This document shows positions 2,448 to 29,019 of a stretch of DNA of 64,000 nucleotides, piece after piece; within the stretch, counting starts at the first letter, position 1, and each line of letters starts with the position of its first letter. Source of the stretch: Candidatus Bathyarchaeia archaeon (GTDB lineage: Archaea > Thermoproteota > Bathyarchaeia > Bathyarchaeales > Bathycorpusculaceae); assembly GCA_049516875.1 (NCBI GenBank), contig JBEKSS010000003.1, forward strand, positions 1-64,000, given 5' to 3'. Below the pieces are notes generated by a model. That model saw only the letters and a list, made by a program, of their open reading frames with translations. It had not been told where the DNA came from and did not search any database. The translations under genes were made by a program, and so were the position numbers.

Positions 2448-2551
2448 CGCGCGCCAGACTTTGGCTAACATATCTGTAGAGCACTTTGGCTTTGTACCCT
2501 CTGCGTGCGGTCAAAAACTATTTTTGTCGATCATTCACACATACTTGACAT

Positions 2552-3160
2552 ATGCTGACACAGGCAGATTTAGCCATCATAATTAGTTTGGTTAGTCTGG
2601 GTGTAACGATCATTAGTGTGCTTGTAAAGTACTCGGGACTAAGCCTACAAAAACGCTCAGGCAGAACCCAACACATGATCTCAGACTTGGACATAACTGC
2701 TGAGAAGCTCAGAAAAATGGTTGAGTCTTCACCAATAGCAAAGCATTCTGCGAATGACGCGTTGGACCGAGCCCTACGTCAGGAATACAAGAATAGGGGA
2801 ATTTCAGTCCCAGAAGGAAAGCCCAAAGGTGAAGTTGAAAACAGGTTCATATCTTCTGTGACCGAACTTAACCAACAATGCCAAGACTATAATCAGATTT
2901 TCCTCAATTTGAGAGAGAAGGGATTCTTCAATCGGATACTCAAGATTGACAACTCACTAGCATGGGAATTGCTAAATACATCATACAAAACTGAGGACTT
3001 CCTCAATCTGAAACTTATAGACCAGTTGAGCAAAGAGAACTCTACGGTTCTGTCGGATCCTGGGACTCTCGTTACAACTATGAATATCGCAGGGCAGATA
3101 CTTGACACTTCGAAACTTTGTATTCAGAAACTTGAAAAATTCCTTGATATCCAAAGATAG
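2552..3160 (+). CDS. Hypothetical protein with N-terminal transmembrane helix
   Basis: 202-aa ORF with hydrophobic N-terminus, followed by a T-rich tract. Confidence 0.65.
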   Translation: MLTQADLAIIISLVSLGVTIISVLVKYSGLSLQKRSGRTQHMISDLDITAEKLRKMVESSPIAKHSANDALDRALRQEYKNRGISVPEGKPKGEVENRFISSVTELNQQCQDYNQIFLNLREKGFFNRILKIDNSLAWELLNTSYKTEDFLNLKLIDQLSKENSTVLSDPGTLVTTMNIAGQILDTSKLCIQKLEKFLDIQR

Positions 3161-3187
3161 AGTCTTCTTTCGGCTTTGTTTTCTCTT

Positions 3188-3277
3188 TCAGAACAAGAAG
3201 TTTGCCAACTCATAGAAGCAGGCTTCGAATTCGTCTGTGACTATGAAGGCAACAAAGTCTTCCGAAAACGGAAGTGA
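3188..3277 (+). pseudogene. C-terminal tail remnant of a tyrosine integrase
   Basis: Reads SEQEVCQLIEAGFEFVCDYEGNKVFRKRK*, homologous to the integrase remnant tail at 15885-15975 (ETDVCALIDAGFDYVCDYEGHKVFRKRKY*). Confidence 0.8.
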
Positions 3278-3285
3278 ACCCTTAA

Positions 3286-3344
3286 AAGAAATCTCATAAG
3301 ACCGGGCTGGGTTCGTCTGTAGCGGGCGGGGTTGGATTTGCACC
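3286..3344 (-). mobile_element. att-like copy of the tRNA-Arg 3' end plus flank (direct repeat of 14629-14687)
   Basis: 53/59 nt identical to 14629-14687 by manual alignment; includes the acceptor strand and part of the T-arm. Confidence 0.9.
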
Positions 3345-3526
3345 TCAGACCAGGTGACGAAATCTCCGCAACTCCCATTCCCTTCGTGTTTAGGAGTGCT
3401 TGCCTTCCAACGAATCGTCACACAGGGTCAGGAGCTTCAAAAGAACTGGTAAGTGTTTTTTTACTAAAGGTTTCTTTAGAAAAAGGGCTTTTAGAACCTT
3501 GGCACACATTCTTAGAGGGGTAAATC

Positions 3527-4561
3527 TTGTCTGAGAAGGAAGAGGAAACATACTCAGTCATGTTTTCATCCTTGAAGCATGCAGTCAGAAGGAAGATTCT
3601 GAGAATCTTGGTGGCAAAGTCGTACACTTTCACAGAAATACTTCAGCAGATCAACATTGAGAGTGCACACTTAAGCTATCACCTTGAAAGCCTAGGGGAT
3701 CTGATTAAAAAGAATAATGGGAAATATGAGCTGTCAGATCTTGGTTACGCGGCAGCATCTCTGATGACCAGAGTTGAGGAACCCGAAAGATTGGTTACTC
3801 CATCTGTCCTCAAGACGCCACGTCGGCTTCAAACAGTTCGCATCTTCTCGGTAGCTCTGATAGTAATCGGTATTCTGCTGCTCGTGAACGGCGCTCTTGC
3901 CTTGCCTGCAGTTGACTACAGACAGACTCGAATTCAATCAGGTATGGATGCTGACTACTGGGTGTTTCAGCCGGAAAACTCGCCGACTAAGTTGGGTTTT
4001 CCATATAACTTGACGAGCTTTTCCGGTTGCTATTACCTAGGACCCGGACTTTACGGCATACAGATTGACCTTCAGATAAATGATTCTTTCCAGGCTTTTC
4101 CATTGCTGGTGAGAATTTGTACACCGAAAACAGGTTCAGAGACTACTGACTTGTGGAATCAATCTTGGTACGAATTCTCTCGTCCTACCTCCGTAAACCA
4201 ACCTCAACATGAAAGATTCGCAGTCACGTTTCTCGCATCTGAAGATTCGGCTCAGATAATCACGCAGGAAGACTTTGGACATGTTCATCCGTCACCGGGA
4301 AAAGTTATCGGAGAATTCAGACCAACAAATGCACAGGTCCTCATCAGAGTAGCGTCTGACATCGGAGATCGAAATGTCACCCTTTCAGGGGGAAGACCAG
4401 ACCAAGCTTTCGCGATAGAATGGTTCTATTCCCCACAGCCTCGAGATGACTGGAAGAATCTGTTCATGTTGTCAGGCTTGAGTTTGATAGTCCCAAACGC
4501 GGTCTTCGTCCTCACGTCCAAGATTCTTAGAAGCAGGAAAGAAGATGCGTATAGACGATAG
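3527..4561 (+). CDS. ArsR-like winged-helix protein fused to membrane and extracellular domains
   Basis: FSSLKHAVRRKILRIL...HLSYHLESL HTH; two hydrophobic segments flank a soluble domain. Confidence 0.75.
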   Translation: MSEKEEETYSVMFSSLKHAVRRKILRILVAKSYTFTEILQQINIESAHLSYHLESLGDLIKKNNGKYELSDLGYAAASLMTRVEEPERLVTPSVLKTPRRLQTVRIFSVALIVIGILLLVNGALALPAVDYRQTRIQSGMDADYWVFQPENSPTKLGFPYNLTSFSGCYYLGPGLYGIQIDLQINDSFQAFPLLVRICTPKTGSETTDLWNQSWYEFSRPTSVNQPQHERFAVTFLASEDSAQIITQEDFGHVHPSPGKVIGEFRPTNAQVLIRVASDIGDRNVTLSGGRPDQAFAIEWFYSPQPRDDWKNLFMLSGLSLIVPNAVFVLTSKILRSRKEDAYRR

Positions 4562-4579
4562 CCTGGCGACAGAACGCGC

Positions 4580-4685
4580 GGACAAAAGAAATGGGGAAAG
4601 GTTATGGACGGAAGCACCACAAATCATGATGGACTACCTGTTCTTGTCAACAGACACCGTGCGAGCGCGGGCGCTGATTCCGTGA
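4580..4685 (+). pseudogene. Decayed RimJ/RimL-type GNAT fragment
   Basis: GKGYG followed, after a frameshift, by TEAPQIMMDYLFLSTDTVR; begins just after ACGCGCG at 4574. Confidence 0.45.
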
Positions 4686-4763
4686 CCATATGGAAAAAGT
4701 GCTGCTGGAGTCAGTGAAAACGGCAAAGCTTAAATTGTCGCCGAATTTTTCAGACCTTAGAGG

Positions 4764-5135
4764 ATGAAACGTTTGGATGGTCTAAAAGGCCAGCATGCAG
4801 GATATTATCCTGAAGTCATAACACGATTGCCGGAAGCGAATATTCAGTTCAAAGGCGTAAGGGCTTGGATATTGCAGAGCGAGAAACATCAATTGATTTT
4901 CTTTGAAATGGAACCTTCTGCACGGGTGCCAGAGCATCGTCACGATTATGCTCAATGGGGAATTGTAGTAGATGGAAAAGTGGAGCTCACTATTAACGGC
5001 AAAACAAGAACCTGTGAGAAAGGAGATGAATACGTCATCCCTGCCCACGCAGAGCATTACGCGAGATTCTTGGCCAAGTCCAGAGTGATAGATTTCTTCT
5101 CCGAAAACAGCAGATACAAGGCTAAATCACCCTGA
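4764..5135 (+). CDS. Cupin-domain protein
   Basis: PEHRHDYAQWGIVVDG...GDEYVIPAHAEH cupin motifs. Confidence 0.85.
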   Translation: MKRLDGLKGQHAGYYPEVITRLPEANIQFKGVRAWILQSEKHQLIFFEMEPSARVPEHRHDYAQWGIVVDGKVELTINGKTRTCEKGDEYVIPAHAEHYARFLAKSRVIDFFSENSRYKAKSP

Positions 5136-5414
5136 CAGTCATCTTCAAAGGCCACTCACAAGACAGAGTGGTCGAATCTGCTCCGATGCATGGAAGCAAG
5201 ATTCGCACTGGCAACCTTGGAGCAATATCTTGTCCCCGAGTTCCTTTTCTGCGAGGACACGCGTGATTCCTGTTTGTTTTCCAGCAGGGACGCGGGAGAA
5301 CCTTTTCTTACGAGTCTGGCCGCGCGTTCACCATGCAGAGCCCCTTTGCTATTCCACTTGAAGGAAGGCGTGTCTGCGTCTTCTGTTTGCGATTATGCCA
5401 GTTTCAACGGACAT

Positions 5415-5783
5415 TCAACGGGCAGATTTGTCGGTTTGCATCATGCCCCAGACGTTTCCTTCAGGATCTTTGAAGTAGGCCATCCACCCGACTCCGGGAA
5501 CGGCTAGTTTCGGCCTGATGATCTTTCCTCCGTTTGCTTTGACTTTCTTTGTGTATTCATCGACTGAAGGCACGTCGATGGTGTTGACTGTTGACGGCTG
5601 AGCTTCCGTTCTTTTCGACAGTCCCCCATCTATGCCCTGTTCCTTTTCTTTTCCAGTCATTATCAACCAATAGTCTACGGGCCCCTTCCACTTCTCAATC
5701 TTCCAGCCAAACACCTTTTCATAGAAGGTTATGGCGTTCTCAGGCTTTTTGGCGTCTATTTCAAAATGAACAACTCTTGGCAA
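5415..5783 (-). CDS. VOC/glyoxalase family protein
   Basis: RVVHFEI...FYEKVFGW...GWMAYFKDPEGN; TTG start at 5783 inferred. Confidence 0.88.
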   Translation of the reverse strand: MPRVVHFEIDAKKPENAITFYEKVFGWKIEKWKGPVDYWLIMTGKEKEQGIDGGLSKRTEAQPSTVNTIDVPSVDEYTKKVKANGGKIIRPKLAVPGVGWMAYFKDPEGNVWGMMQTDKSAR

Positions 5784-5809
5784 CTTCAACACCTCAGTTG
5801 TGGAAAGGG

Positions 5810-6298
5810 TCAGGCTTGACCTTTGTATGTCGTGTAACTGGTGTATGGCGGCGGAATATCGTGTTGCCAGTAGATGCATAGTATTTCTCCGCGGTGATGT
5901 ATCTCCTCTTCAATCACATGCATTAGAATATCTTCGGTTTTGTTCCGATTGATGTTCCCGTCTCTTCCTTTGAATTCGAACACGCTCTGGAGCTTCTCAT
6001 CCGTGAGTTTCTCCAAATATTCACTTGTCTCAACCTCAACTTTATCAGCATATTCTTGAATGGAATTGACATCTGCATATTTAGTGAATGGAGCGTTGTA
6101 GATTCCTTCTATGCTTTTTCCGCTCAAACGTCTCATCCAGAGATGCTCGGCCTGCAGACTGTGAACGAATATGTCTCGGATAGAGTCAAAGCTGGCTCCG
6201 CAGCTTTCTACAACCGTTTTCCAGGGGATTTCTGCCATGCTTTTCAGGAATTTGCGGCGCGAATACCAATTATATCCAAACAGATCCTTGATGTTCAA
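5810..6298 (-). CDS. DinB family protein
   Basis: SIRDIFVH...HVIEEEIHHRGE His motifs. Confidence 0.85.
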   Translation of the reverse strand: MNIKDLFGYNWYSRRKFLKSMAEIPWKTVVESCGASFDSIRDIFVHSLQAEHLWMRRLSGKSIEGIYNAPFTKYADVNSIQEYADKVEVETSEYLEKLTDEKLQSVFEFKGRDGNINRNKTEDILMHVIEEEIHHRGEILCIYWQHDIPPPYTSYTTYKGQA

Positions 6299-6531
6299 AT
6301 ATATCTCCAGAAAAAGCGTAATGTTTTGCTTTCTAATAACGTTTGTTAGCCAATCATGTTTTTATGACAAGATGGATCCCTGAATCAACTATCTGTTATA
6401 CTCTCCCCTTTTCTCAAAGTCGATTAGTACGCGCTTTGCGGACTAGCGTTTGCGTTGTGGGATTTTGACCCTCGCGCGCAGTGGTTTCAGAGTTTCCTTA
6501 TACGACCGCTTTCCTGCTGGTAGCGCGCGCT

Positions 6532-7989
6532 CTAGAGTTTGAGGCCTTTTGCCACTCGTTTGCCAAACTCTGGATCAGCTTCAGTAAGGTTCTCGACCAT
6601 CCGTTTCTGAATAGCTTTCTCTGCGTGACTCAGCGAATCCACAATGTTATCAACCAGGTGGTCTTGATCCATTTTGCCTAGTGAGCGGTAGCGTTCGCCT
6701 GCTTGCTTGAAGTCGTTTGTCAAACTGATTTTCTGACGCACGATGTCTGCGTCAAGATGCTCGTGGGTCGTGCCAGTGGCCGGAGCTTCATGCGGCATTC
6801 CATCTGCTAGCGTGTTGGGTTCGTAGTTGACTGTTCCTCCACCGTAGGGCGCATACTGCATGGCGCCGTCGCGTTGATTGTTATTGACAGGTGCCTGTGG
6901 CCGATTGATTGGGAGTTGCAGATAATTAGCACCCAATCTGTGCCTTTGGGTATCTGCGTAGGAGAAGATTCTACCCTGCAGGAGCTTGTCAGCGGAGAAG
7001 TCGATGCCTGGAACAACAGAGGCTGGGCAGAAAGCTGCTTGCTCTGTTTCGGCGAAGAAGTTCTCGGGGTTGTGGTTCAACACCATCTTGCCCACGGATG
7101 TGAGGGGGAACTTGTCTTCTGGCCAGGTCTTTGTGGCGTCAAGCGGGTCGAAGTCCTGCTTCAACTCATCCGCGATTTCCATGATTTGAACGCACAATTC
7201 GTACTCAACTGTCTTTCCTGAAGCAATGGTTTCGTACAAGTCGCGAGTAGCAACGTCAGGGTCCTCACCAGCTAGGCGAGTGGCTTCGTGACGGTCTATT
7301 GTTTCTATTCCCGCTTTTGGCTTCCAATGATACTTGACGTAGACTGCTTTGCCCTTGGCGTTTACCCACTTGTACGTATTGACGCCAAATCCTTCCATTT
7401 TTCTGTAGCTCCTTACTGTCCCTCGGTCTGAGAAGAGCCAAGTGATCATGTGAGTCGATTCAGGAGCCAGCGAGATGAAGTCCCAAAAGCGACTGTTTGC
7501 CGACGAGCTTGTGGGGTAACCAGTGTCAGGGGCAGGCTTGAAGGCGTGCACCATATCAGGAAACTTGATGGCGTCTCGGATGAAAAAGACTGGCAAGTTG
7601 TTGCCTACCAAGTCATAGTTTCCGTCTTCAGTGTAAAACTTCACAGCAAAGCCCCTTGGATCGCGAGCCGTATCTGCAGATCCTCTTGAGCCCACAACTG
7701 TGGAGAAACGGACGAAGACAGGTGTTTTCTTCTTTGGGTCTTGAAGGAATTTTGCACACGTGTATTTTGCCATGCTCTTGTACACTTGGAAATATCCGTG
7801 TGCGCCGGCACCTTTCGCGTGCACCACACGCTCGGGAATACGCTCACGGTCAAAGTGTGCAAGCTTCTCAATCAAATGCACATCCTGCAGCAAAACAGGA
7901 CCGCGCTCGCCTGCGGAGAGCGAATTCTGGTTGTCAGAGACAGGAACACCCTGATTCGTCGTGAGATGTTTCTCTTTCATAACTTTCAC
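6532..7989 (-). CDS. katA: Monofunctional heme catalase
   Basis: FDRERIPERVVHAKG active-site motif and RIFSYADTQRHR heme-ligand motif. Confidence 0.95.
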   Translation of the reverse strand: MKVMKEKHLTTNQGVPVSDNQNSLSAGERGPVLLQDVHLIEKLAHFDRERIPERVVHAKGAGAHGYFQVYKSMAKYTCAKFLQDPKKKTPVFVRFSTVVGSRGSADTARDPRGFAVKFYTEDGNYDLVGNNLPVFFIRDAIKFPDMVHAFKPAPDTGYPTSSSANSRFWDFISLAPESTHMITWLFSDRGTVRSYRKMEGFGVNTYKWVNAKGKAVYVKYHWKPKAGIETIDRHEATRLAGEDPDVATRDLYETIASGKTVEYELCVQIMEIADELKQDFDPLDATKTWPEDKFPLTSVGKMVLNHNPENFFAETEQAAFCPASVVPGIDFSADKLLQGRIFSYADTQRHRLGANYLQLPINRPQAPVNNNQRDGAMQYAPYGGGTVNYEPNTLADGMPHEAPATGTTHEHLDADIVRQKISLTNDFKQAGERYRSLGKMDQDHLVDNIVDSLSHAEKAIQKRMVENLTEADPEFGKRVAKGLKL

Positions 7990-8040
7990 ATCCCTTTTCT
8001 GTTGTTTTGTAACGTCTTACGCTGTCAAAGACTAAAGGCT

Positions 8041-8067
8041 TATTTAAGATTTGTTATTATCTAATAA
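8041..8067. promoter_or_regulatory. TATA-like box plus AT-rich palindrome TTATTA-TC-TAATAA (putative Fur/PerR operator)
   Basis: The palindrome at 8054-8067 lies between the divergent catalase and Fur-family genes. Confidence 0.45.
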
Positions 8068-8072
8068 AAGGT

Positions 8073-8513
8073 ATGAGTCGCTTTCAGAAATCAGACGCAT
8101 TGATAATCGAAACTCTCCGAAAGAAAGGATACAAAGCCACTACGCAAAGAATAGCTATTTGTCGATTTGCCCTCCATAGCCGAGACCATCCGAGCGCGCA
8201 AAGAGTCTACGATGAAGTAAGGAGAGTTCATCCAACTGTCAGTCTTGCAACAGTCTACAAGACACTTCAGATTCTGACGAAACACGGCCTAGTCCAAGAA
8301 CTGGATTTGCCAGAAAGTCAGGCAAGATTCGATTCTTATGTGGAGCCTCACATTAACCTGATCTGCATGCGGTGTGGCAACATTCAAGATTTCGATGATA
8401 GTGCTGCTCGAGAAATGGTTGAGAGAGTGGCAGCCAAAGCAGAATTCACGCGGACGGGGCAACGCTTGGATATTTATGGCGTTTGCAAGACTTGCCGCAG
8501 CAGCAACAAATAG
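8073..8513 (+). CDS. Fur family regulator, PerR-like
   Basis: HPSA..VY, SLATVYKTL, two CxxC motifs; divergent from catalase. Confidence 0.9.
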   Translation: MSRFQKSDALIIETLRKKGYKATTQRIAICRFALHSRDHPSAQRVYDEVRRVHPTVSLATVYKTLQILTKHGLVQELDLPESQARFDSYVEPHINLICMRCGNIQDFDDSAAREMVERVAAKAEFTRTGQRLDIYGVCKTCRSSNK

Positions 8514-8998
8514 CACGCAGGTTAGAACCCAAAGAGGTTCAGACTTCTACCGTCCTACACCGAAAGAGCAAACGCGATACAAAGCTCCAAAAGCTTCCTG
8601 TCGCACATACCTTGCCACTAACCTGAAGACCTATCAAGACTGCCAAGGAAATCTTGTCGACCTACGTTCTCTTTGAAACCCCTCTTTTTTAGCGCGCTTT
8701 CCTTAGCAGCTTTCACAACTTTATTATCGTAGCAATGACTTCGGACTGTTGAGGTGATTTTGATGGGTGTGAAGCGCGCGCGAGAAGAGCCAGCATCATA
8801 TCCATTCTCATCCTATTCAGAAGCAGAGTTAGACTATTGGAACTCATTAGCATGTGATGTATTGTCTCCATTAGCATCATAATAATCTTCATTCTTCCTA
8901 TCCGCTCTCTGTTGCTTGTTCGAGTGTATGTTGCTTGACGTTGTTGTACATCGGAAAACGTATATTAACACTCAAGTCTCAGATGTATTGGGTTCATA

Positions 8999-9247
8999 AT
9001 GCTTAAACTCTACAACTTTCATTATTTGCAAAAAGATGGGATGTTGATAACGACCAAAAGACTTTGCGAACATTTTAGCGATGCTTTGGAATTAGCTCAA
9101 GATCTTGCTGATGAACATGAATGGAGACTAACGCATGTTGAGCAAGCAGCGATTATAGGATTGTCATTAAATACGCAGCCAGATCATGTTCAACCTCAAT
9201 TCATCAGTCATCCATACAAGAAGAACAATAAGAAGACGAGACTTTAG
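8999..9247 (+). CDS. Small hypothetical protein in an AT-rich, foreign-looking segment
   Basis: 82-aa ORF preceded by a TATA-like TATATTAA; no family recognised. Confidence 0.45.
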   Translation: MLKLYNFHYLQKDGMLITTKRLCEHFSDALELAQDLADEHEWRLTHVEQAAIIGLSLNTQPDHVQPQFISHPYKKNNKKTRL

Positions 9248-9520
9248 ATAAAGTTGCTTCAATAAAGCTTGCACATTTTCATGTTAATCTATCGTACGAT
9301 ATGACGCTGCACAAATGAAGTCGACAGATTAATCCGATCAGACAATGGCAGTTTGATGAATTAATGTGGCATCTAGGGCATCAACTTTCACCGTTAGATG
9401 TAAGTGATGTACTGAAGTGTGCTAGTTAAGAGAAAAAAGAGAGGGAAGAAAAAGCTAGTCATTGTCTAACTAGCTATCAACATTATGTCGAAAGTGCAGA
9501 ACAGAAAAACGCAATGAATC

Positions 9521-9982
9521 CTATTTTCCAGTTTTCAGTTTGAGATTAGCCATTGAATACAAGGCTCTCTTTGTCTCACGCAAAAGGTGAAGGTCTTTCT
9601 CCATTAGGAAAGCATCCACGTCTGCAAGTGCAACTTTTTTCAGATTATTGATTCTAGCCCAATCCACACATTTACCAACCAGCGAAGGAAGCTCATCTTT
9701 TTCCTCTTGTAGTGCTCGCCTTTGAGCAAGGAAATCTGCTCTTTGCATCTTTGACTGAACTTCGAAAGGCATTAGGAATTCTTGAACCCCCTTGCTTTCC
9801 CAGAAATGGCGAGAAGCAGAATCATAGTCAAGTCCTACTTCTGTTTGTTCCTTCTTTGTGAACTCAAAGATTTCCACAGCAAGCTCCTCAGATGTTCTCT
9901 TCTCTATCCAGTCTGGAACTTCTGCTTCCTCTCTGTGAAAAATCAATCCACCTCTCTCTATGCCCTCTTGTATCAGAGGCAT
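9521..9982 (-). CDS. Hypothetical protein
   Basis: 153-aa ORF with protein-like composition, co-oriented with 10053-10910. Confidence 0.55.
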   Translation of the reverse strand: MPLIQEGIERGGLIFHREEAEVPDWIEKRTSEELAVEIFEFTKKEQTEVGLDYDSASRHFWESKGVQEFLMPFEVQSKMQRADFLAQRRALQEEKDELPSLVGKCVDWARINNLKKVALADVDAFLMEKDLHLLRETKRALYSMANLKLKTGK

Positions 9983-10052
9983 TCCTCAGCTCTGAACATC
10001 ATGCATTCATTTCCCTTACAAGTCTCTCTTAGGAATGGACAGAAAGTATTGG

Positions 10053-10910
10053 TCATGTTTCTACTTTCTTTATCTCTTCAAATATTTCGTCAATCTTACC
10101 GCTAAGTGTTCTCTTGTAGGTATTTACTAGGGCAATCAGTTCATCAAGTCTGTTTTTGCAGGTTGTTCTGAGACTATCTGCAATTCTCGAGATTGCATCT
10201 ATGGATTCTATGTTTTTCTGAAGTTCCAAGCAATGATTGTTTATTTTAGTAATGACTTTACCGAGTTCTTCTCCTTTCAGTTCTTTCTTCTTCATTGAGT
10301 CTAATTCAGCTACTTTCTTAATCACATAGAAGGCGAAAAGATGCCCAGACCAATTCAGTTCACTGTTGACAACAAAGACTGCTGTTCTATTCATTTCAGT
10401 CTTGAGGTTAATACAGCCTGAGCACTTTGTTATCCCAGAACGCATAGAGACAAAGATGCCATAACGTGTTCCACGTCTCTCCATATCTCTCCAGAATTTA
10501 TCAATCTCTTGAGAAGGAACTGTTCCTTTGTAATCCTTAAGTTCAATCATAACGGGTATCTTAGTATCAGAAGTGGTAGCTAGAATATCAGTATACTTCC
10601 CTATTCCTGAAACATCCTCAAACGAGTCGTCCATGAAGTGTTCTTGAAGACTTCGGAAGATTGTTTCTACTGTAATCTCTCCTTTCTTTGCTGGTGTTGC
10701 TATGGTTGGGATAATTAACTTCAATTGCTCCCTTATCATCTCAATGTCTGACTTCAGTGGTGCAAAGAAATCCTCTATTGTCTCCTTTCGTGTTCCTATT
10801 GATGCGTGAGAGACAACCATCTCTCCAAGAATGATATATTTTTCAATAATCTCATCTCTTCGAGTGGCTGGAACCCCCTCAACAATTTCTATGGCTCTAG
10901 GGTCTGTCAA
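10053..10910 (-). CDS. Restriction-endonuclease-like PD-(D/E)XK protein with coiled coils
   Basis: KKGE...TDIL...VMIELKDY...EIDKFWRDM. An upstream ATG near 10954 is out of frame across an A7 run. Confidence 0.6.
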   Translation of the reverse strand: MTDPRAIEIVEGVPATRRDEIIEKYIILGEMVVSHASIGTRKETIEDFFAPLKSDIEMIREQLKLIIPTIATPAKKGEITVETIFRSLQEHFMDDSFEDVSGIGKYTDILATTSDTKIPVMIELKDYKGTVPSQEIDKFWRDMERRGTRYGIFVSMRSGITKCSGCINLKTEMNRTAVFVVNSELNWSGHLFAFYVIKKVAELDSMKKKELKGEELGKVITKINNHCLELQKNIESIDAISRIADSLRTTCKNRLDELIALVNTYKRTLSGKIDEIFEEIKKVET

Positions 10911-11096
10911 TGTCAGATTTAACTTTTTTTCTTAACAGAGAGTGAGACTGTCATGTTCTCACGGATAAAGTACCAGTTGATTCAACTTATAGTTTATGAA
11001 TGACAGATAAGAATCAAAGGTTATGCTTCATGGGAAATGCAAAACACAGAAATCTTAAGTCTGCACAGAAACAGAAGACAAACTAGGGGTCCAAAA

Positions 11097-11597
11097 ATGA
11101 GTGAAAAGAAAATGGTTAGAAGAAATGTCGCTGTTGCACTTGGAATAATCTGCGTCATATTGATAGCTGCATTAGGTGTGGCGATGAGTGAGGCTTTCTA
11201 TTCGAGTTCACGAGTGGCTGACCTTACCAATACTCTTAATCTAGGAAAAACTGAGGTTTGGGTGATGGAGAAAAACTATTATCAACTGCCGAGTAATTAC
11301 ACTGATTGGACATTCTCCATCAACGTTTCGGGTTACGTTCTAGTCTCCTTGGTAACCCTTGGTAACGTATACGTCCGAGTAATCTACAATGCTTCTGTCC
11401 CCGTTGGTATCGTGGATGGTACGCTATTCGACTATGGCACATTTTATAATTATCAATATGATTCCCAGATAACTGTCAGTGGTCGCGGAACAGCAGTTTT
11501 TCCAGTCTTGCCCTCTTCAAACATTGAAATCAGAATCGGCAACACATATACGTTTGGTGGGTCAGGTGAAACCGTATCAATAATATACTACTACTAA
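11097..11597 (+). CDS. Hypothetical membrane-anchored protein
   Basis: MSEKKMVRRNVAVALGIICVILIAAL anchor, beta-rich C-terminus, T-rich tract after the stop. Confidence 0.7.
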   Translation: MSEKKMVRRNVAVALGIICVILIAALGVAMSEAFYSSSRVADLTNTLNLGKTEVWVMEKNYYQLPSNYTDWTFSINVSGYVLVSLVTLGNVYVRVIYNASVPVGIVDGTLFDYGTFYNYQYDSQITVSGRGTAVFPVLPSSNIEIRIGNTYTFGGSGETVSIIYYY

Positions 11598-11871
11598 ACC
11601 CGTTCTCTTTTTTCAGTTTAAGCCATGCAGTACAGAAGGCTCTAGCACGACTCAAAGCGCGTGCGACGTTTTACATCAGACTCAGAAGAATGTATCCATA
11701 ACGTCTAACAAAAGAGGGCCTAAAGCACCTACCTTCTACACATCAAATAGGTCACTCATTTAAAGCCCATACATTTGCTGTTGACTTGTATTCCATATCC
11801 GTATAAAAACGGGGTTTGCAAATACTAGTAAGGGGCATCTGAAAGCTACAAACACAATACCCAAAACATCA

Positions 11872-12110
11872 CAGGGTACCATCATAGATTTTGCATGGCA
11901 ACTTAAGAAAGATGGGTTAAGCGATACGACCATTAGGAATTATTCGCTGTCATTGGAAATGTTGGTGAAGAGAGGCGCTGATATCTTCGATCCAGATTCC
12001 ATTAAGGCTGTCATTGCATCTCAGAAATCGAGTAATGCTACTAAGGTACAGGTCATTGCTGCTTACAAGAAGTTTGCTGTTATCAATAACATCTCATGGA
12101 CTCCACGCAT
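11872..12110 (+). pseudogene. N-terminal (core-binding) fragment of a tyrosine integrase
   Basis: IIDFAWQLKKDGLSDTTIRNYS..LEMLVKRGADIFDPDSIKAVIA...AYKKF...SWTP resembles archaeal integrase N-termini; similarity ends at GCGCGCTA (12111). Confidence 0.7.
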
Positions 12111-12285
12111 GCGCGCTAGAAGATGGATTAATTTATGGATATCATGATGACCATTTGACTAGGCTTCAAGCGATACTTCTATTACAGAGGTTGAATAAGT
12201 TCGGTCTAGTTGAAGGATTTAAGGGAACTCAAAGTCATTTTGGAAAATCAACCATTAAGTTTGTAGAATAAGAAGGTGAGAAAAG

Positions 12286-12441
12286 ATGAGCGAGAGAAGA
12301 TACAACAGAAGTAAAAACTACAGATGTCCATCATGTAGTCTAGAATTCAAGAGTGAGGGAGTACCTGGACACTGTCCACGATGTCACTCTGTAATTGAGA
12401 TTAAAGAAAATAATAGGAGATCCCAGCGCGCGCGCTATTAG
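12286..12441 (+). CDS. Small zinc-ribbon protein (51 aa, CPSC...CPRC), below the ORF-track cutoff
   Basis: AAGGTGA RBS then MSERRYNRSKNYRCPSCSLEFKSEGVPGHCPRCHSVIEI; the last codons run through the GCGCGC junction. Confidence 0.6.
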   Translation: MSERRYNRSKNYRCPSCSLEFKSEGVPGHCPRCHSVIEIKENNRRSQRARY

Positions 12442-12482
12442 TGGTACTGAAAAAGCATTAAGCTCAAGCGCGCCAAAGAGGA

Positions 12483-12683
12483 TTAGGGCCGTCTTTGTAT
12501 GAGTATCCTGTCTATTTTTCCTTCTGCTAGTTGTTCCTGCAACTCTTTGACGAAGCTGTAGAATTCGTCTGGAAACATGGCGGCTTCTGTGTTCATGTCG
12601 AACGTTTTTGTCTGGGCCACCGTGTTGGCGTAAAGGCCGTTCTTAATTCCTTCCACACTAACCCGTACCATACCATCAGCCAT
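12483..12683 (-). CDS. Small hypothetical protein
   Basis: 66-aa ORF with a TATA-like element upstream, between junction motifs. Confidence 0.55.
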   Translation of the reverse strand: MADGMVRVSVEGIKNGLYANTVAQTKTFDMNTEAAMFPDEFYSFVKELQEQLAEGKIDRILIQRRP

Positions 12684-12738
12684 AGAAAGAAGAAAGGAAG
12701 ATAGATTATATACATATCTAACAAGTCAAGGCGCGCTA

Positions 12739-12936
12739 CTATTTCATTATTGATTGTACTCTGCCGACTTTGCCGTCTGTCAGTCGTACCTTGATTCCGT
12801 GGGGGTGAGTTGAGCTGTTGGTGAGGATATTCTTGACGATGCCCTCAGTTAATTTGCCGTTGCGTTGGTCCTGCTTCAAGACGATTCTTACGCGGATACC
12901 AGGATTGATTTGGCTCCTCTGCTGATTAGGTTGCAT
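12739..12936 (-). CDS. YwbE/DUF2196 family protein
   Basis: IVLKQDQRNGKLTEGIVKNILTNSSTHPHGIKVRL..GKVGRV signature. Confidence 0.9.
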   Translation of the reverse strand: MQPNQQRSQINPGIRVRIVLKQDQRNGKLTEGIVKNILTNSSTHPHGIKVRLTDGKVGRVQSIMK

Positions 12937-13079
12937 TTCCGATAATAGGTGCTTCGCGGCTTATAGTGTATTCGCACTGCTTATCCAAAACGATGAATTG
13001 GTGCCGAGGGCAAGCGCGCGCACATATTAAGCCGCACCAACAAATACGATTCATATGTTTGCGGAGATGAACGGCAGGC

Positions 13080-13310
13080 ATGAATATGTGGAAGTGGCTT
13101 TCAGCATTATGTGCGTTTCAATTCATAGTAATGGTCATTGCAGTTTCTTTGTTTTACTATCCATTAAGAATTCAACTAATGCAATTGTCGGATTTCTTAT
13201 TCGGCATAGGGCTTTCAGTGGCGATATTTCTAATAGGCACACCCCTCTTTTGGTTGCGGGGAACAGAAGCGGATAAACGCCATCGTATGAAGACTAAAGA
13301 TGATATCTGA
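13080..13310 (+). CDS. Small membrane protein
   Basis: Two hydrophobic helices. Confidence 0.5.
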   Translation: MNMWKWLSALCAFQFIVMVIAVSLFYYPLRIQLMQLSDFLFGIGLSVAIFLIGTPLFWLRGTEADKRHRMKTKDDI

Positions 13311-13323
13311 ATGCCTAAGAAGA

Positions 13324-15842: not shown

Positions 15843-15884
15843 CCTATGGTGAAAACGACGGGGGGTTTGTCCAGAAGCCTAGTT

Positions 15885-17638: not shown

Positions 17639-17686
17639 TAGCGCGCGCCTTCTATCAGTCTGTTTGAGCCAGTTTTTGGTTTTGCG

Positions 17687-19204: not shown

Positions 19205-19357
19205 AGAAATACAGGGGCCTCCAGTTTGTGACACACGAGTCTTTATGTTCATGACGAAACCTTTTTGAAAATTCGATTTGACCCTAATAAAGTCAACTCA
19301 CCCTTGGTAATCACACAGTGTTAGTCTTCAATACGAATTTCACAAGAGAATTGCTTC

Positions 19358-19942
19358 TCAAAGTAGTTTCACGCCACTAAGGGCTTCAAATAGGAAAAGG
19401 ACCCCAAACACAACAAAAATCAAAGATGCTCCAATCTTAACGTAGCGTGCAGAGATGTATCGAGAAATGATTTTTCCGAGAACTGCACCAAGAGCCGTTA
19501 ACAAGGCAAACGCAAGCATAACTCCGAGAAATACTTGAATAGGTGCACCGTATTCTGCGGATAAGGCAATAACTGCAAGCTGTGTCTTATCACCAAGCTC
19601 CATTATGGCTATCAGAAAGAACGATGTTGCAACGGTTTTTGAGTGCTCTTTGATTTTGACTATCACATCTTCTTTCGAAAATAGTGTGAATACTCCGAAA
19701 ATGAGGAATGAAATGCCAGCTCCCAAACCTATCCAAAATGCTGGAACAAAGGGGGCGATGGCTCCGCCCACTATTGCACTAACACCATCAACTAGAGCAA
19801 AAGCCAGAAGAGCACCAATGAAAACCGACCTTGGTCTGTGTTTAGCACTCAGACTAACGACTGCAATCTGTGTCTTGTCACCGAATTCGGCTAATGCAAC
19901 AATAGCGAACGTCGATAATAGTGGAAGCAAATCTAGTGCCAT
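19358..19942 (-). CDS. TMEM165/GDT1 (UPF0016) Mn/Ca transporter
   Basis: Two E(F/L)GDKTQ motifs. Confidence 0.92.
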   Translation of the reverse strand: MALDLLPLLSTFAIVALAEFGDKTQIAVVSLSAKHRPRSVFIGALLAFALVDGVSAIVGGAIAPFVPAFWIGLGAGISFLIFGVFTLFSKEDVIVKIKEHSKTVATSFFLIAIMELGDKTQLAVIALSAEYGAPIQVFLGVMLAFALLTALGAVLGKIISRYISARYVKIGASLIFVVFGVLFLFEALSGVKLL

Positions 19943-20126
19943 ATTTCTCTCATCAACATTACTGAAAGCAATAGCGGTATTGTCAAGCTAGACGATATTT
20001 AAGTAAGATGAGTTTTTGGCTAGAAGACACTTCTATCAGTCTTTTTAGGTCAGTTTGACCCGTCTATTCTTTAGAAGAAAACGGTCGTGTGACGACGGAA
20101 TTCGGGAGACATCGCCACTGACCATA

Positions 20127-24048: not shown

Positions 24049-24419
24049 TCATAACACTATAGCGCGCTTGCCGTCGTAGATCTTGCACAAAGCTACAGAT
24101 TTGACAGCGCTAGGGTCCAACTCGCTCACATCCTCTTTCAATCAAGCTTGACCGTTCTCTTAAACCCGACTCTCAACAAGCAATCACAAACTGTGACTAC
24201 CGCATGACGCGGTCGTTGATTCTCTCCGGCTTTTTCGCTTCAAAGAGTAAAGGGACTGGCCATTCCAGTTAGGGGTTCTGTGCAAAAAGTGATCAACAGA
24301 ATGGTCACCCGCTTGGCGCGCGCCAGGCAGGTTGGACCTTTAAATCATAAATATGTGTGGCACACAATTGCAATGGTCGTCTAGTGAGAGAGCCAAGAAT
24401 CAGGTCTGGAGGTTATCTG

Positions 24420-25100: not shown

Positions 25101-25149
25101 GAAGAAGCATCTTTAGATTCTCTACACCTGCTTGCGAATAGCGCGCGCG

Positions 25150-25725: not shown

Positions 25726-25889
25726 TTCTACCTACCTCCCTTTCAACAGCATCGCATATTGAATGATTGTAGTCAACGAGATAACCGTTCTACAGTCATA
25801 TGACAGCTAGCGTGCGTTTCCCTTCTGTGCTGCTCTTAGAATTTTCGCTTCCCCCTTTGCCCGCGCGCGCGAGGGAGCATCCATTCATC

Positions 25890-25905: not shown

Positions 25906-25952
25906 TTATTAGCTGTGTCGATATGAATCCAGAAGCATAACGGTGAGAAAGA

Positions 25953-26933
25953 ATGAAAGCATGGAAAATAATGTTAATGGTAGCCACTCTAGCCACAATC
26001 GTTGTGATCGGAGGAACCCTTGCCTACTTTGATTACTTCGCCCGAAGGCGCCTAAGAATCTCAACGACTACAAGTCTCTACGACACTGGATTACTGGACG
26101 AAATAGAGAAACAATACGAAACAACTCACAGCGTTGACCTTAACATCATATCAGCTGGAACAGGCATAGCTCTCCAACAAGCACAATCCGGAGACGCAGA
26201 CGTCGTGCTAGTCCACTCTCCATCCCAAGAACAGACTTTCCTCGAAAATGGCTATGGGGTCTGCAGAAAAATAATCGCTTATAACTTCTTCACGATAGTA
26301 GGTCCAACCACTGACCCAGCGGGAACCACAGGAAAAAACGCCACCGACGCTTTGAAAAGTGTAGTGGCCTATGGAAGAAACCATCAAACGATCGCATGGG
26401 TTTCGCGAGGAGACAACTCTGGCACGTTTTCAAAAGAGCAAAGCCTCTGGACAGCAGCAGGCTACAACCAGACCCAAATATCCACAGAGATTTCGTGGTA
26501 CGCAACCACGGGCTCGGGAATGGCTGATACGTTGAACGTGGCCAACCAGAAATCGGCGTACACTCTTTCAGACCTTGGCACCTACCTCAAACTATCACAG
26601 GACGGCACGATATCCTTGAAGTCGCTCATATCGGGAGGGAAATCCCTGCTAAACGTCTACAGCGTGATGGCAGTGAATCCGACGAAAGTCTCTAATGTCA
26701 GCTTCAACGACGCCGTAGACTTCATAAAATGGCTTGTTTCAGACACAGGTCAACAGGTAATAGAAAACTACGGCAAAGCCAATTACTCGCAGAGTCTCTT
26801 TTACGCCGCAGTTCAACCCCTCAAGGACAACAATCCTCAGCAGATAGTCCAGTGGATACAGAGCTACGCCTTCTTCAACGCCACAGAATGCCCACAGCAG
26901 TACAGAGATGACCATCCAGAACTCTACCCTTAG
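25953..26933 (+). CDS. tupA: Tungstate ABC transporter substrate-binding protein
   Basis: STTTSLYDTGLL, GTGIAL, SRGDNSGT. Confidence 0.9.
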   Translation: MKAWKIMLMVATLATIVVIGGTLAYFDYFARRRLRISTTTSLYDTGLLDEIEKQYETTHSVDLNIISAGTGIALQQAQSGDADVVLVHSPSQEQTFLENGYGVCRKIIAYNFFTIVGPTTDPAGTTGKNATDALKSVVAYGRNHQTIAWVSRGDNSGTFSKEQSLWTAAGYNQTQISTEISWYATTGSGMADTLNVANQKSAYTLSDLGTYLKLSQDGTISLKSLISGGKSLLNVYSVMAVNPTKVSNVSFNDAVDFIKWLVSDTGQQVIENYGKANYSQSLFYAAVQPLKDNNPQQIVQWIQSYAFFNATECPQQYRDDHPELYP

Positions 26934-26945
26934 AGGCAAACGGAA

Positions 26946-27665
26946 TTGAACCAAATCCTTGACGGCATAGTGAAAGCGCTACAGCTGATTTTTTCAGGCG
27001 ACCCAACGGTCTATGGCATCGTCTACCGCTCCCTCCTTTTTTCAGGGATAGCTACGATTATCGCCGTACTGTGGGGAACCCCCATAGCGATGCTGCTGGG
27101 TCTCAGAGACTTCCATGGAAAATCAATACTCAAAGGGCTCTTTAACGCTTTAATCGGCATGCCTACAGTAGCCTTAGGCTTAATCCTTCTCCTCATTCTT
27201 TCAAAGGATGGGCCATTAGGATTTCTAGGAATACTATACACGCCGGCAGCCATAATCTTAGGCGAAGCCGTGCTTGTGACACCTTTAGTTGTCAGTATCA
27301 CTACGGCAGCTATTGAAGCCGTTGACCCTGAAATGATGAACCTGGCCAAAACGCTGGGCGCATCAGAATCGCAAGCGTCGATAGTAGTTTTAAAGGAAGC
27401 GATGAACGGAGTCATTTTATCGGATATCGCCAGTTTCAATCGAGCAACAGCTGAGCTCGGCGTAGCCCTGCTGGTAGGAGGCAACATTGCGGGCTTGACC
27501 GACGTGCTGACCACAGATATTTCGAAGTACACTCAACGGGGTGACTTCAGTTATGCCATAGCACTCGCCATAATACTGCTTGTAATAGTCTTTGGGATAA
27601 ATCTAATAATAGTCAGCGCTCGAAAGGTGAAAATACTGCTTACTTTGGGCAGAATGCCGCAGTAA
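26946..27665 (+). CDS. tupB: Tungstate ABC transporter permease
   Basis: GPLGFLGILYTP, RATAELG..L.VGGNI.G.T.VLTT. Confidence 0.9.
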   Translation: MNQILDGIVKALQLIFSGDPTVYGIVYRSLLFSGIATIIAVLWGTPIAMLLGLRDFHGKSILKGLFNALIGMPTVALGLILLLILSKDGPLGFLGILYTPAAIILGEAVLVTPLVVSITTAAIEAVDPEMMNLAKTLGASESQASIVVLKEAMNGVILSDIASFNRATAELGVALLVGGNIAGLTDVLTTDISKYTQRGDFSYAIALAIILLVIVFGINLIIVSARKVKILLTLGRMPQ

Positions 27666-27715
27666 ATCCTAGAAATCATCGTTCAGGTGACCAAAAGACG
27701 ACAACACTTGTAGAA

Positions 27716-28759
27716 TTGAAGAACTTGACTAAATGTTTCGGCAACAGAAAAGCGTTGGACGGCGTAACTTTGCAGATCCAAGAAGGCGAAATCCTAGCGT
27801 TGCTGGGACCTAACGGGTCAGGAAAAACTACTTTGCTGAAAGTTCTGGCTTTCCTAGAAAAACCCACAGGCGGGGAAAACAAATTCCAAGGCGAGATAGT
27901 CACAGGAAAGAATGCGGAACGGATGCGACTGCAGAGCGCAATGGTGTTTCAAAGAACTCTCCTCTTCAGCACCACGGTCTATAACAACGTTGCGTACGGG
28001 CTGAAAATGCGGAAAATGCCGAAGAAAATCATCGAAGAAGAGGTCAAGAAAGCCTTGAAACTCGTGAAATTAGAAGGTTTCGAGAAACGTTCCGCTAAGA
28101 AACTTTCCGGCGGAGAAGAGCAAAGAGTAGCGTTAGCCAGAGCCTTGGTTCTAAAAACTAAGCTTCTCCTCTTGGACGAGCCTACCGCAAACTTGGACCC
28201 GAAGAACGCTTCAATACTCGAGGAAGTAATAGCCACGGTCAACCATGAACTAAAAACCACAATTGTGATGGCTACGCATAACATGTTCCAAGCCAAGACT
28301 TTGCCCCATCGCGTCGCACTAATAAACGATGGAAGGATATCCGAAGTTGGAACGACAGCAGAAATTTTTGGCAAGCTCTCAAAGAGTCTGGCCAGTTTCG
28401 CCGCAGTCGACAACACTTTCGCTGGAACTGCAAAAATCACGGAAGCAGGCACGACAATTGTAGACGTCGGCAATGGCGTGCAAATCGAAGCAACACTTCA
28501 AAAACAAGGTGAAACCTCCATCTTCATAAGCCCCCAAGACATAATCCTGTCTAAAAACCCACTGAAATCAAGCGCCAGAAACGTGTTCAAAGGCAAAATC
28601 ATCCAAATCGCAGATTTAGGCTTGCTCGTCAAGCTCACGGTTGACGTTGGAAAACCCTTCATGGTCCAGATAACCAAACGTTCTTTCAGTGAGATGGCGC
28701 TTAACCTGAACGTTGAAGTCTTCATCGTCTTTAAAGCGTCAAGCGTTCAGGCGATCTAG
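27716..28759 (+). CDS. tupC: Tungstate/molybdate ABC ATPase with TOBE domain
   Basis: GPNGSGKT, LSGGE, LLLDEP, SSARN TOBE motif. Confidence 0.88.
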   Translation: MKNLTKCFGNRKALDGVTLQIQEGEILALLGPNGSGKTTLLKVLAFLEKPTGGENKFQGEIVTGKNAERMRLQSAMVFQRTLLFSTTVYNNVAYGLKMRKMPKKIIEEEVKKALKLVKLEGFEKRSAKKLSGGEEQRVALARALVLKTKLLLLDEPTANLDPKNASILEEVIATVNHELKTTIVMATHNMFQAKTLPHRVALINDGRISEVGTTAEIFGKLSKSLASFAAVDNTFAGTAKITEAGTTIVDVGNGVQIEATLQKQGETSIFISPQDIILSKNPLKSSARNVFKGKIIQIADLGLLVKLTVDVGKPFMVQITKRSFSEMALNLNVEVFIVFKASSVQAI

Positions 28760-29019
28760 ATTGGGCTTTTTCTTTTCTCTGACAACTCATACAAGATGAC
28801 TGATGCCTCCCGAAAGACATATTCACCTAGTCGCCAGTTCGGCCACAGCCATATCAGGTTTTTCGCGCAGTATCGCCTCTAGTGCGCGCAAGCGCTTTAC
28901 GCTTCTACCGTTCCGCGCGGGCGCGCGATGTCTGCATGCGACATTAATCACACTTGGTCGCGCGCAGTTCCAAGCGAAACAAACAAACTAACAACAATTT
29001 CAAAAACGGCTTCATGATA

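Follow-up and report, generated by a model that had tools for sequence, protein, structure and literature searches.

The stretch of DNA analysed here (hereafter the window) comprises the first 64,000 nucleotides of contig C3 (C3:1-64000) of G000, a 2.43-Mb, 20-contig Bathyarchaeia metagenome-assembled genome (MAG) with 47% G+C and 97.5% completeness. Its first 29.9 kb are accessory DNA, in which genes for a catalase, a Fur regulator, a zinc-ribbon protein, a Tag glycosylase and others are interspersed with short alternating stretches of (GC)3-5, and synteny with all four other species of the genus (G001 to G004) starts from ~29938. These stretches, with overlapping GCGCGC matches merged, are referred to as runs. 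The original prediction held that this motif joins the region into cassette-like modules and that a site-directed capture or shuffling mechanism, functionally like an integron, acts on it. This study confirms the observation and partly supports its interpretation, as (GC)3-5, preferably flanked by A or TA, is a genus-wide palindrome of variable, non-conserved intergenic DNA that often lies exactly at joints, and it also makes up the extreme ends of the terminal inverted repeats in the IS5-family insertion sequences (IS) and miniature inverted-repeat transposable elements (MITEs) of the genus. We propose, with a probability of roughly 45%, that the run is a microhomology for breakage and rejoining that has been seeded by transposon ends, but not the site of an integron-type site-specific recombination.

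Runs and module boundaries in the accessory DNA

The window contains 44 GCGCGC matches, compared with a mean of 10.17 (sd 3.62, largest 21) in 100 dinucleotide-preserving shuffles, none of which reached 44. The predicted enrichment and the near-absence from the core at 30-64 kb were both recovered: 43 of the 44 matches start at or before 28960, and the sole match beyond 30 kb (61584-61589) lies within an acetyl-CoA synthetase open reading frame (ORF; Pfam ACAS_N and AMP-binding), the relatives of which are Bathyarchaeia or Bathyarchaeota MAGs from peat, soil and sediment, more than 20 of them with 87-91% identity. When merged, the matches give 31 clusters, 30 of them before 29 kb, and by our own arithmetic the chance of 30 of 31 falling in the first 45% of the window would be of order 1e-9 if they were evenly spread. 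According to the ORF list and Pfam, the runs at 635, 2016, 8194 and 61584 are clearly coding, those at 12426 and 13343 overlap the last codons of an ORF, and the others are intergenic.

Among the 27 junction positions first listed, 26 lie within 4 nt of an exact run; the remaining one, 14616, has no exact GCGCGC but a degenerate run, TAGCGCACGCGCTA, at 14617-14630, one base from TA(GC)5TA. The list lacked the runs at 635, 1596, 2016 and 8194, while mentioning "a few coding hits". Three runs do abut stop codons as described, at 2449 (1 nt past the stop of ORF 1665-2447), 6523-6530 (catalase) and 12731-12736 (the DUF2196 gene), and genome-wide there is no special concentration of runs at stop codons. 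The label "TIR-like" given to ORF 1665-2447 found no Pfam match, and the proposed tRNA-Arg was not called by ARAGORN, whereas Rfam does match a tRNA with a CCU anticodon loop there, over model positions 7-64 only. Pfam scans covered 30 window ORFs within 1-30 kb, and public peat and sediment metagenome contigs (data sets X5, X7, X8 and X12) were placed on window positions 1-20000; such contigs are blind to circles, molecule ends and rare variants, and window parts without cover were not counted as evidence. The features of the window are as follows.

635-640: GCGCGC, coding, in the ATPase_2-like ORF 121-1314
1596-1601: GCGCGC, between genes 121-1314 and 1665-2447
2016-2021: GCGCGC, coding, in ORF 1665-2447
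2449-2454: GCGCGC, 1 nt after the stop of ORF 1665-2447
6474-6479: GCGCGC, intergenic, between the DinB gene and the catalase gene
6523-6530: (GC)4, 1 nt from the catalase stop (ORF 6532-7989, minus strand; Pfam Catalase)
6531-6532: start of the catalase and Fur homology to G001, G002 and G004; three X8 contigs diverge before 6525
8194-8199: GCGCGC, coding, in the Fur ORF 8073-8513
8692-8697: GCGCGC, TA-flanked, intergenic
8774-8781: (GC)4, intergenic; two X8 contigs diverge behind 8774
12111-12116: GCGCGC, left boundary of module A, the same in four left contexts (window, G001, G002, G003); the 8 nt left of 12111 (CACGCAT) resemble a MITE inverted-repeat tip
12117-12425: module A, plus strand, promoter region and 50-aa zinc-ribbon ORF 12289-12441
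12426-12435: (GC)5, right end of module A, codes for the C-terminal residues of the zinc-ribbon protein
12468-12473: GCGCGC; G002:C9 homology ends at 12473
12474-12730: module B, minus strand, 66-aa ORF 12483-12683, no Pfam match
12731-12736: GCGCGC, left end of module C, DUF2196 stop codon 2 nt away
12737-13013: module C, minus strand, DUF2196 gene 12739-12936
13014-13021: (GC)4, right end of module C, GCACGCGC in G003 and absent in G001; four X12 contigs diverge behind 13013
13343-13348: GCGCGC, 9 nt before the end (13357) of a block 99.6-100% identical to G004:C12
14195-14200: GCGCGC, 26 nt before the end (14226) of a block 99% identical to G002:C2
14617-14630: the degenerate run TAGCGCACGCGCTA
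14673-14734: tRNA-like Rfam match, minus strand, CCU anticodon loop (Arg), model positions 7-64
16082-16089: (GC)4, left run of a 57-nt replacement in X8
16147-16152: GCGCGC; G001:C15 homology (Tag glycosylase module) starts at 16153
16167-16172: GCGCGC, 8 nt from the Tag glycosylase stop (ORF 16180-16761, minus strand)
16842-16847: GCGCGC, TA-flanked, intergenic
16906-16913: (GC)4, intergenic; two X8 contigs diverge before 16913
17409-17418: (GC)5, intergenic
17641-17648: (GC)4, intergenic, downstream of a beta-lactamase-fold gene
24062-24067: GCGCGC, intergenic, upstream of a GNAT gene
24316-24323: (GC)4, intergenic
25141-25148: (GC)4, downstream of an isochorismatase gene
25863-25870: (GC)4, upstream of a molybdate-type ABC operon
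28884-28965: three GCGCGC (28884, 28921, 28960) in one intergenic region, between the ABC ATPase gene and a ModE-like gene
29938-37010: start of the syntenic core, 77-85% identity to four congeners, no (GC)3 run
61584-61589: GCGCGC, in the acetyl-CoA synthetase ORF

Between species, the first 20 kb of the window give only scattered DNA matches, some of them 97-100% identical as against ~77-86% for core genes, and many of these matches end on runs, namely at 6531-6532, 12111 (in three genomes), 12421-12439, 12473, 12728, 13013-13021 and 16153, with a further end at 13357 within 9 nt of a run. Module A (12117-12425 plus its run), whose zinc-ribbon ORF passes through the (GC)5 to a TAG stop just beyond, occurs in five copies at 88-97% identity across four genomes (the window, G001, G002 twice, and G003) and has four different left neighbours, each joined at a run. 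The fifth copy is truncated 45 nt inside, and its new joint bears a run that is absent there in the other copies. Module C, the DUF2196 gene, has the same two ends in three right-hand neighbourhoods (window and G002, G001, G003). Its right run is preserved in the window and in G002, shows one decayed base in G003 and is missing from G001; its left run reads GCGTGC in G002 and G003 and is intact in G001 beside different DNA.

Alternative junctions at the motif, for which the original prediction suggested a search, were found between strains: in X5 and X7 one contig each joins 12434 directly to 13023, linking module A to module D through one run, and the abundant strain of these data sets is without modules B and C. 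An X8 contig has 11 different letters in place of the 57 nt that separate the runs at 16082 and 16147, and contigs diverge from the window on runs at 6525, 8774, 13013 and 16913. Many other contig joints and loose ends lie off the runs, some at the tRNA-like gene (14665-14671, 14732), others between copies belonging to a repeated gene family (~9503-9512, 11041-11062, 11619). That the motifs could be assembly artefacts was an objection that fails, as 93-97% of sampled words of 8500-18499 are present in three further public data sets from other studies, and the assemblies of four other species are motif-rich as well.

Within G000, after terminal-inverted-repeat-like elements were removed and endpoints clustered, 41 of 1113 breakpoints lie no more than 5 nt from a run, compared with 8-21 in eight shifted controls; for intergenic breakpoints alone the figure is 36 of 471 against a base rate of 2.5%, a weak link. 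The repeat mask was over-permissive (992 hits), so that this figure is conservative, while the unmasked self-BLAST figure of 171 of 2281 endpoints is inflated by near-identical MITE endpoints. Only six repeat pairs without such terminal repeats share a run-marked end, and one MITE end adjoins a rearrangement. A 1.65-kb repeat ending near runs was rejected as a mobile element, since it belongs to a family of ~1100-aa TPR-like genes; this family has at least six paralogues on contigs C1, C2, C9 and C10 of G000 (for example C10:96555-99863) with ~70% DNA identity and conserved N-terminal sequences.

Several further observations concern the same DNA. Window positions 8561-13357 (4.8 kb) are 99.6-100% identical to G004:C12:66215-71013, up to the end of that contig, where core genes show ~85%, which points to a recent exchange between species. 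Both ends of the 186-aa ORF 11037-11597 (11040-11180 and 11570-11645), together with ~75 nt at 9435-9511, recur in dozens of often clustered copies in all four congeners; this resembles a family of genes that are conserved at both ends and variable in between, and Pfam gave no match for it. The tRNA-like site, taken over 14664-14768 of the minus strand, is itself a hot spot of metagenome-contig joints (14665-14671, 14732) that do not involve the motif. A possible pairing partner for the 3′ acceptor half of the tRNA is GGGCGGG at 14762-14768, which would place an intervening sequence of ~25 nt near the tRNA start. In the core, window 30000-52000 has a strong positive AT skew on the plus strand, up to 0.39 per 2-kb bin. 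On contig C18 (59% G+C) no Rfam family was matched.

Frequency, placement and genus specificity of the runs

The runs are a feature of the whole genome. G000 contains 1412 overlapping GCGCGC matches and 965 runs of (GC)3 or longer, GCGCGCGC is the commonest of all its 8-mers, and, as the genome-wide check suggested in the original prediction brings out, no other 6-mer reaches the observed/expected ratio of GCGCGC (1.53) when a maximal-order Markov model is applied. Gene calls were crude (2249 genes covering 80% of the genome, the remaining 20% being taken as intergenic); since they miss real genes, the contrast between intergenic and coding DNA is conservative. This contrast is nevertheless 11- to 20-fold, with 710 intergenic (14.7 per 10 kb) against 255 coding (1.31 per 10 kb) runs of (GC)3 or longer, and 324 against 64 runs of (GC)4 or longer, whereas the control palindromes GGCGCC, CCGCGG and GCCGGC have intergenic/coding ratios of 0.5-0.9. 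The coding density is near the value for shuffled sequence (~1.6 per 10 kb), and the 387-kb contig G004:C1 repeats the contrast with 16.4 intergenic against 1.49 coding runs per 10 kb.

The runs are bounded in length and have little sequence around them. Alternating G/C runs of 6, 7, 8, 9, 10, 11, 12, 13 and 14 bases number 503, 204, 240, 112, 56, 5, 1, 1 and 1 in G000, where other dinucleotide runs fade by 8-10 bases; counted in the G..C phase there are 345, 212, 48 and 1 of 6, 8, 10 and 12 bases, and in G004:C1 54, 40 and 15 of 6, 8 and 10 bases with none longer. The G..C phase prevails over C..G by 606 to 195. A stands at -1 in 608 and T at +1 in 553 of 1123 cases, the preference for TA is weaker, and the flanks of the G000 runs show no conservation beyond A/TA. 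TA occurs on both sides of 36 runs, with ~35 expected, so that the two sides are independent. Neighbouring runs share little polarity of the TA flank (22 left-left pairs against 13.6 expected), and the search for a cassette polarity found none.

Along intergenic regions the density of runs is nearly flat, at 1.3-2.5 per kb, with a slight rise in the 40 nt past stops and a dip in the 40 nt before starts, and tandem, convergent and divergent regions carry runs alike. A promoter or terminator element was rejected, as the runs keep no fixed distance to starts or stops; their placement is the pattern of something tolerated where it is harmless, unlike that of a positioned regulatory site. Runs are also clustered, with a variance of 12.5 against a mean of 3.9 per 10-kb bin, and spacings of 10-200 nt are 3-4 times commoner than expected.

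Variable and conserved DNA differ strongly in run content. Across 217 kb of G000:C1 that are syntenic with G004:C1, intergenic DNA that aligns with G004 holds 0.31 runs per kb (5 in 16.2 kb) and unaligned intergenic DNA 1.72 per kb (42 in 24.4 kb), namely a 5.5-fold deficit in conserved intergenic DNA, while coding DNA in the same comparison has 0.13-0.22 per kb. In the aligned blocks 6 runs are common to both genomes, 18 are found only in G000 and 21 only in G004, and this low sharing roughly fits neutral decay at ~15% divergence by our own estimate.

The motif is a trait of the genus, present in bulk in all five of its genomes and not in 26 further genomes, which represent 25 other genera in its family and order. 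The 10-mer AGCGCGCGCT occurs 98 times in G000 and 29, 87, 69 and 115 times in the other four species, with 2-6 copies of its reversed control, whereas the 26 genomes have 0-9 copies, 24 of them 0 or 1 (the exceptions being G018 with 9 and G013 with 5). Therefore, an island-only feature, as implied by the original contrast of core and island, was rejected: the motif is genome-wide and genus-wide. The idea of a local integron-like array fared no better, given this spread, the lack of polarity, the lack of conserved flanks past A/TA and a contig without any tyrosine recombinase.

IS5-family elements and MITEs with run tips

Self-comparison of G000 uncovered a first MITE family of ~190 bp with at least 16 copies, whose tips are GCGCGC and whose terminal inverted repeats of ~45 bp start with GCGCGCATGC; TA stands on both sides in 8 of 12 aligned copies. 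A second family starts with GCGCGCTGCC, and MITEs in the genus range from ~160 to 300 bp. The same terminal repeats are carried by full-length IS elements of 1.08-1.1 kb with two overlapping ORFs, DUF772 and DDE_Tnp_1, which is the IS5-family architecture. Full elements, all of them with GCGCGC or (GC)4 at their ends, are found in G002 (two copies; an IS5-family transposase is at C1:34476-35552), G000 (C7:36805-37906), G001, G003 and G004. The transposase has 1, 2, 7, 1 and 12 matches in the five genus genomes and matches, mostly weak, in 6 of the 26 others, and repeat tips match 6, 35, 3 and 56 times in G001 to G004.

Just outside the run no direct repeats were found in any of seven full IS copies, and a target duplication hidden within the palindromic run would not be distinguishable from a repeat tip. 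Related IS elements in two motif-poor outgroups end in CGCGC (G005) and CGTGC (G023); as CGTGC is non-palindromic and inverted at the two ends, the tip bases are part of the inverted repeat and not a target duplication. Because the tips of both element ends are runs, each transposition plants two runs.

Elements of this kind have further forms. Truncated MITEs end in new runs, and one empty site reads TA(GC)4TA where G004 holds a MITE; among 20 MITE loci of relatives compared with G000 this left one informative pair, as intergenic flanks are unalignable at ~80-85% identity. A 480-bp element, G000:C10:117472-117951, holds a 125-aa HTH_20-like ORF between MITE repeats, and at G000:C15:16976-17910 a CGGC-domain gene is bordered at one end by (GC)4 plus a degenerate repeat, and at its other end by the tip of the following MITE. 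Most runs, ~94%, are nevertheless solitary, with no repeat adjoining.

Origin of the runs and related systems

Based on these findings, we propose that transposition of IS5-family elements and their derivatives could have seeded the runs, and that any two runs would then serve as perfect G+C-rich microhomologies of 6-10 bp, in either orientation since they are palindromic. Breaks at or next to runs may arise when a transposase cleaves element tips, or because the DNA is structurally fragile, and may be rejoined by host microhomology or end-joining repair, for which Ku, a LigD polymerase and a ligase are encoded. Self-complementary ends that are rejoined in shifted registers would leave 6, 8 or 10 bases, and very rarely a longer run. 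In this way segments could be shuffled, deleted and captured with a cassette-like outcome, and the island at 1-29.9 kb would be dense in runs because it is a patchwork of recently exchanged pieces. The repair genes form a compact operon at G000:C9:90886-93943, which encodes Ku, a LigD primase-polymerase and an ATP-dependent ligase that has a fused 3′-phosphoesterase domain; with it, a Bathyarchaeia MAG possesses a complete gene set for end joining of the bacterial type. Of the 31 genomes, 4 contain Ku, namely in G000, G002 and G004 within the genus and in G010 among the 26 others.

Several findings weigh against this proposal. Breakage at runs and their rejoining by Ku and LigD are inferred; searches of G001 (77% complete) and G003 (93% complete) yielded no Ku, and it is present in G010, which has a single copy of the 10-mer. 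Only 112 of the 965 runs lie at the end of any intragenomic repeat, and only 54-65 of 1930 run sides have a core like the terminal inverted repeats. The window holds no IS or MITE repeats, with 0 matches to either terminal-repeat pattern at up to 3 mismatches, and motif load does not track IS/MITE load, as G003 has 69 10-mers with 3 terminal-repeat matches and 1 transposase match. Solitary runs, the repeat-free window and G003 together imply that live elements directly explain a small share of the runs. Modules A and C carry no inverted repeats beyond the run despite recent movement (92-98% identity), so that their recognition by a transposase is unexplained, as is the acquisition of runs by repeat-free modules. 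The in-place replacements are likewise unaccounted for: 6-7 alignable intergenic runs replace an equally long unrelated stretch, with no clean insertion of 8-10 nt among them. At one such site, G000 C1:390793, three other species lack the run and have a common alternative sequence, so the run was probably derived in G000. The independence of the two TA sides disfavours scars of a TA duplication and leaves them without support as a distinct class.

The link between runs and joints is not universal. Homology breakpoints fall on the motif repeatedly and exactly between species and strains, as the original prediction would have it; among 20 clean indels between G000 and G004:C1, 11 have a run in at least one allele, with a run within ~20 nt of the joint in 4, but the other 9 have no run in either allele. 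The G000-only insertion of 2.6 kb at window 37010-39652 has no (GC)3 run at or near it; it contains a 722-aa ORF with a weak CARDB match, and the four congeners have ~100 bp in its place. Another insertion, of 1.5 kb at G000:C1:393694-395217, is absent from the four congeners and is flanked by diverged promoter-like copies of ~45-50 bp (GCATTTATTAATGG...), each ending in a run of (GC)3-4. Long flanking duplications were dismissed as a general signature, as this is the one case and none was seen elsewhere. The layout of this insertion, the in-place replacements and the independent TA flanks without a common polarity fit no simple model.

A possible but doubtful alternative is a dedicated recombination or capture system specific for the motif, wherein an enzyme cuts and exchanges strands within (GC)n, excises a run-to-run segment, perhaps as a circle with one run, inserts it at any run and occasionally converts pseudo-sites to (GC)n. 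The sharp module ends re-used in different contexts and the strain variants that join run to run agree with it; the 1.5-kb insertion is laid out as X-run-insert-X′-run, as the insertion of a circle would give, but its flanking duplication is not general. In-place changes of 7-10 nt to (GC)4 fit the conversion of a crossover core, and the overlap regions of tyrosine recombinases match run lengths of 6-8 bases. The runs, however, show neither conserved recombinase-binding arms nor orientation or polarity, and one junction received its run from a single partner. As to the enzyme, the earlier statement that none is identifiable in the window is upheld by the Pfam scans, which yielded no recombinase, transposase or nuclease candidate in the ORFs of 1-30 kb except a weak Mrr-like match at 10053-10910. 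Tyrosine recombinases (PF00589) have 10 matches in G000 but none on contig C3, and they are not genus-specific, with 0-15 matches in motif-poor relatives against 3-22 in the genus; neither a serine recombinase nor a Y1 transposase (PF01797, RAYT/IS200-type) was matched in G000. Should such a system exist, which we think rather doubtful, it would be a cut-and-rejoin or strand-exchange system needing only 6-10 bp of (GC)n and moving single-gene modules among ~1000 sites per genome and between species. It might, with the same reservation, amount to an orientation-free, integrase-less counterpart of the integron, whose tips the IS5-family elements adopted or whose enzyme they gave rise to.

Pure transposon debris, in which essentially all solitary runs are tips or excision scars and modules are decayed cargo elements moved by the transposase alone, is a further alternative, and all examined IS and MITE families of the genus do end in a run. 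Cargo-carrying copies exist (G000:C10:117472-117951 and the CGGC-domain gene on C15), and the truncated MITEs with new runs and the empty TA(GC)4TA site are what debris would leave. We regard this as unlikely, since recently moved modules are without repeats, the window has no terminal inverted repeat, TA flanks are independent, runs replace in place rather than insert, and G003 is motif-rich but IS/MITE-poor.

Still less do the data favour a selected host motif, such as the site of a genus-specific protein or an element absorbing supercoils or prone to Z-DNA, for which IS tips would be mimics or which they would target, the link to junctions being secondary. Insertion sequences are known to target the repetitive extragenic palindromic (REP) sequences of their hosts, and the genus specificity, strong over-representation and exclusion from genes, as well as in-place gains resembling the turnover of binding sites, would suit this idea. 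Yet the spacing between runs and gene starts or stops is not fixed, run positions are rarely conserved (6 common against 18 and 21 in single genomes), and a 5.5-fold rarity in conserved intergenic DNA is the opposite of a maintained site; we therefore hold this explanation to be quite improbable.

Restriction-type cutting and ligation is very unlikely. BssHII cuts G^CGCGC, and an enzyme like it, acting on both incoming and resident DNA, would produce compatible CGCG ends that are ligated in vivo, leaving GCGCGC, or 8 or 10 bases after partial or full fill-in, at joints. The series of 6, 8 and 10 that stops at 10 would fit shifted annealing or fill-in of 4-nt CGCG overhangs, and the excess of the G..C phase (606 against 195) agrees with this. 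A resident restriction site is normally avoided, however, and here it is ~ninefold enriched intergenically; no candidate enzyme emerged, and C5 cytosine methyltransferases (PF00145) had 0 matches above cut-off in the five genus genomes, in a search that covered this class and not N4 or N6 methyltransferases. Chance, compositional bias or assembly artefact can be dismissed, as 0 of 100 shuffles reached the observed count, GCGCGC has the top Markov ratio of all 6-mers, and independent assemblies and metagenome contigs carry the runs.

The runs share traits with several known systems. Like other IS5-family and MITE populations, the genus has 1.08-1.1-kb DUF772 and DDE_Tnp_1 elements, short copies sharing their repeats and a few copies with passenger genes, of the kind termed mobile insertion cassettes in work on Bacillus cereus; unlike them, ~94% of the runs are solitary, the window is without such elements and no target duplication is established outside the run. 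As in integrons, small and often single-gene modules stand in varied order and neighbourhood, and homology breaks at a short recurrent site. However, no integrase lies nearby, the site has 6-10 bases only and no attC-like imperfect inverted repeat, genes at 1-30 kb lie on both strands with no common site orientation, and sites are genome-wide. The microhomology or Ku/LigD end-joining route, or Z-DNA-prone (CG)n fragile sites, resemble the present case in the short shared G+C-rich junction word, the bounded length and the Ku/LigD operon.

Iterated words offer a second comparison. HIP1, a highly iterated palindrome of cyanobacteria, and the DNA uptake sequences found in Neisseria and Haemophilus are likewise short lineage-specific words with hundreds to thousands of copies and in-place turnover, but those words are frequent in genes and conserved DNA, whereas here coding DNA is near chance and conserved intergenic DNA is poor in runs. 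REP sequences and bacterial interspersed mosaic elements (BIME), with their REP-associated tyrosine transposase (RAYT), are also intergenic, repeated, palindromic and associated with mobile elements; the run, however, is far shorter than a REP hairpin, and G000 has no Y1 transposase.

To our knowledge, no known system uses one fixed palindrome genome-wide as its preferred joint. A full-text search of the literature, judged by abstracts, likewise found no system of this kind and no account of the motif in archaea, consistent with the original remark that no described system was recognised, and this absence at the abstract level would also suit a dedicated system. The components, namely IS5-family elements, MITEs, iterated palindromes and microhomology joints, are known; what is new is their combination, in which one fixed palindrome of 6-10 bases acts throughout a genus both as the tip of transposons and as the preferred joint.

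Bathyarchaeia are abundant, uncultured archaea of peat and sediment, and the movement of their accessory genes is hardly known. A palindrome that marks transposon tips and many module joints in five species and several independent metagenomes gives a testable handle on gene flow in these archaea, and in annotating their MAGs the motif is a practical marker of variable DNA and of junctions. If a dedicated enzyme proved true, it would be a new minimal site-specific system with possible use as a tool. If the runs are transposon tips acted upon by microhomology repair, as we propose, they would illustrate clearly how a mobile element can alter the pattern of recombination in its host genome.

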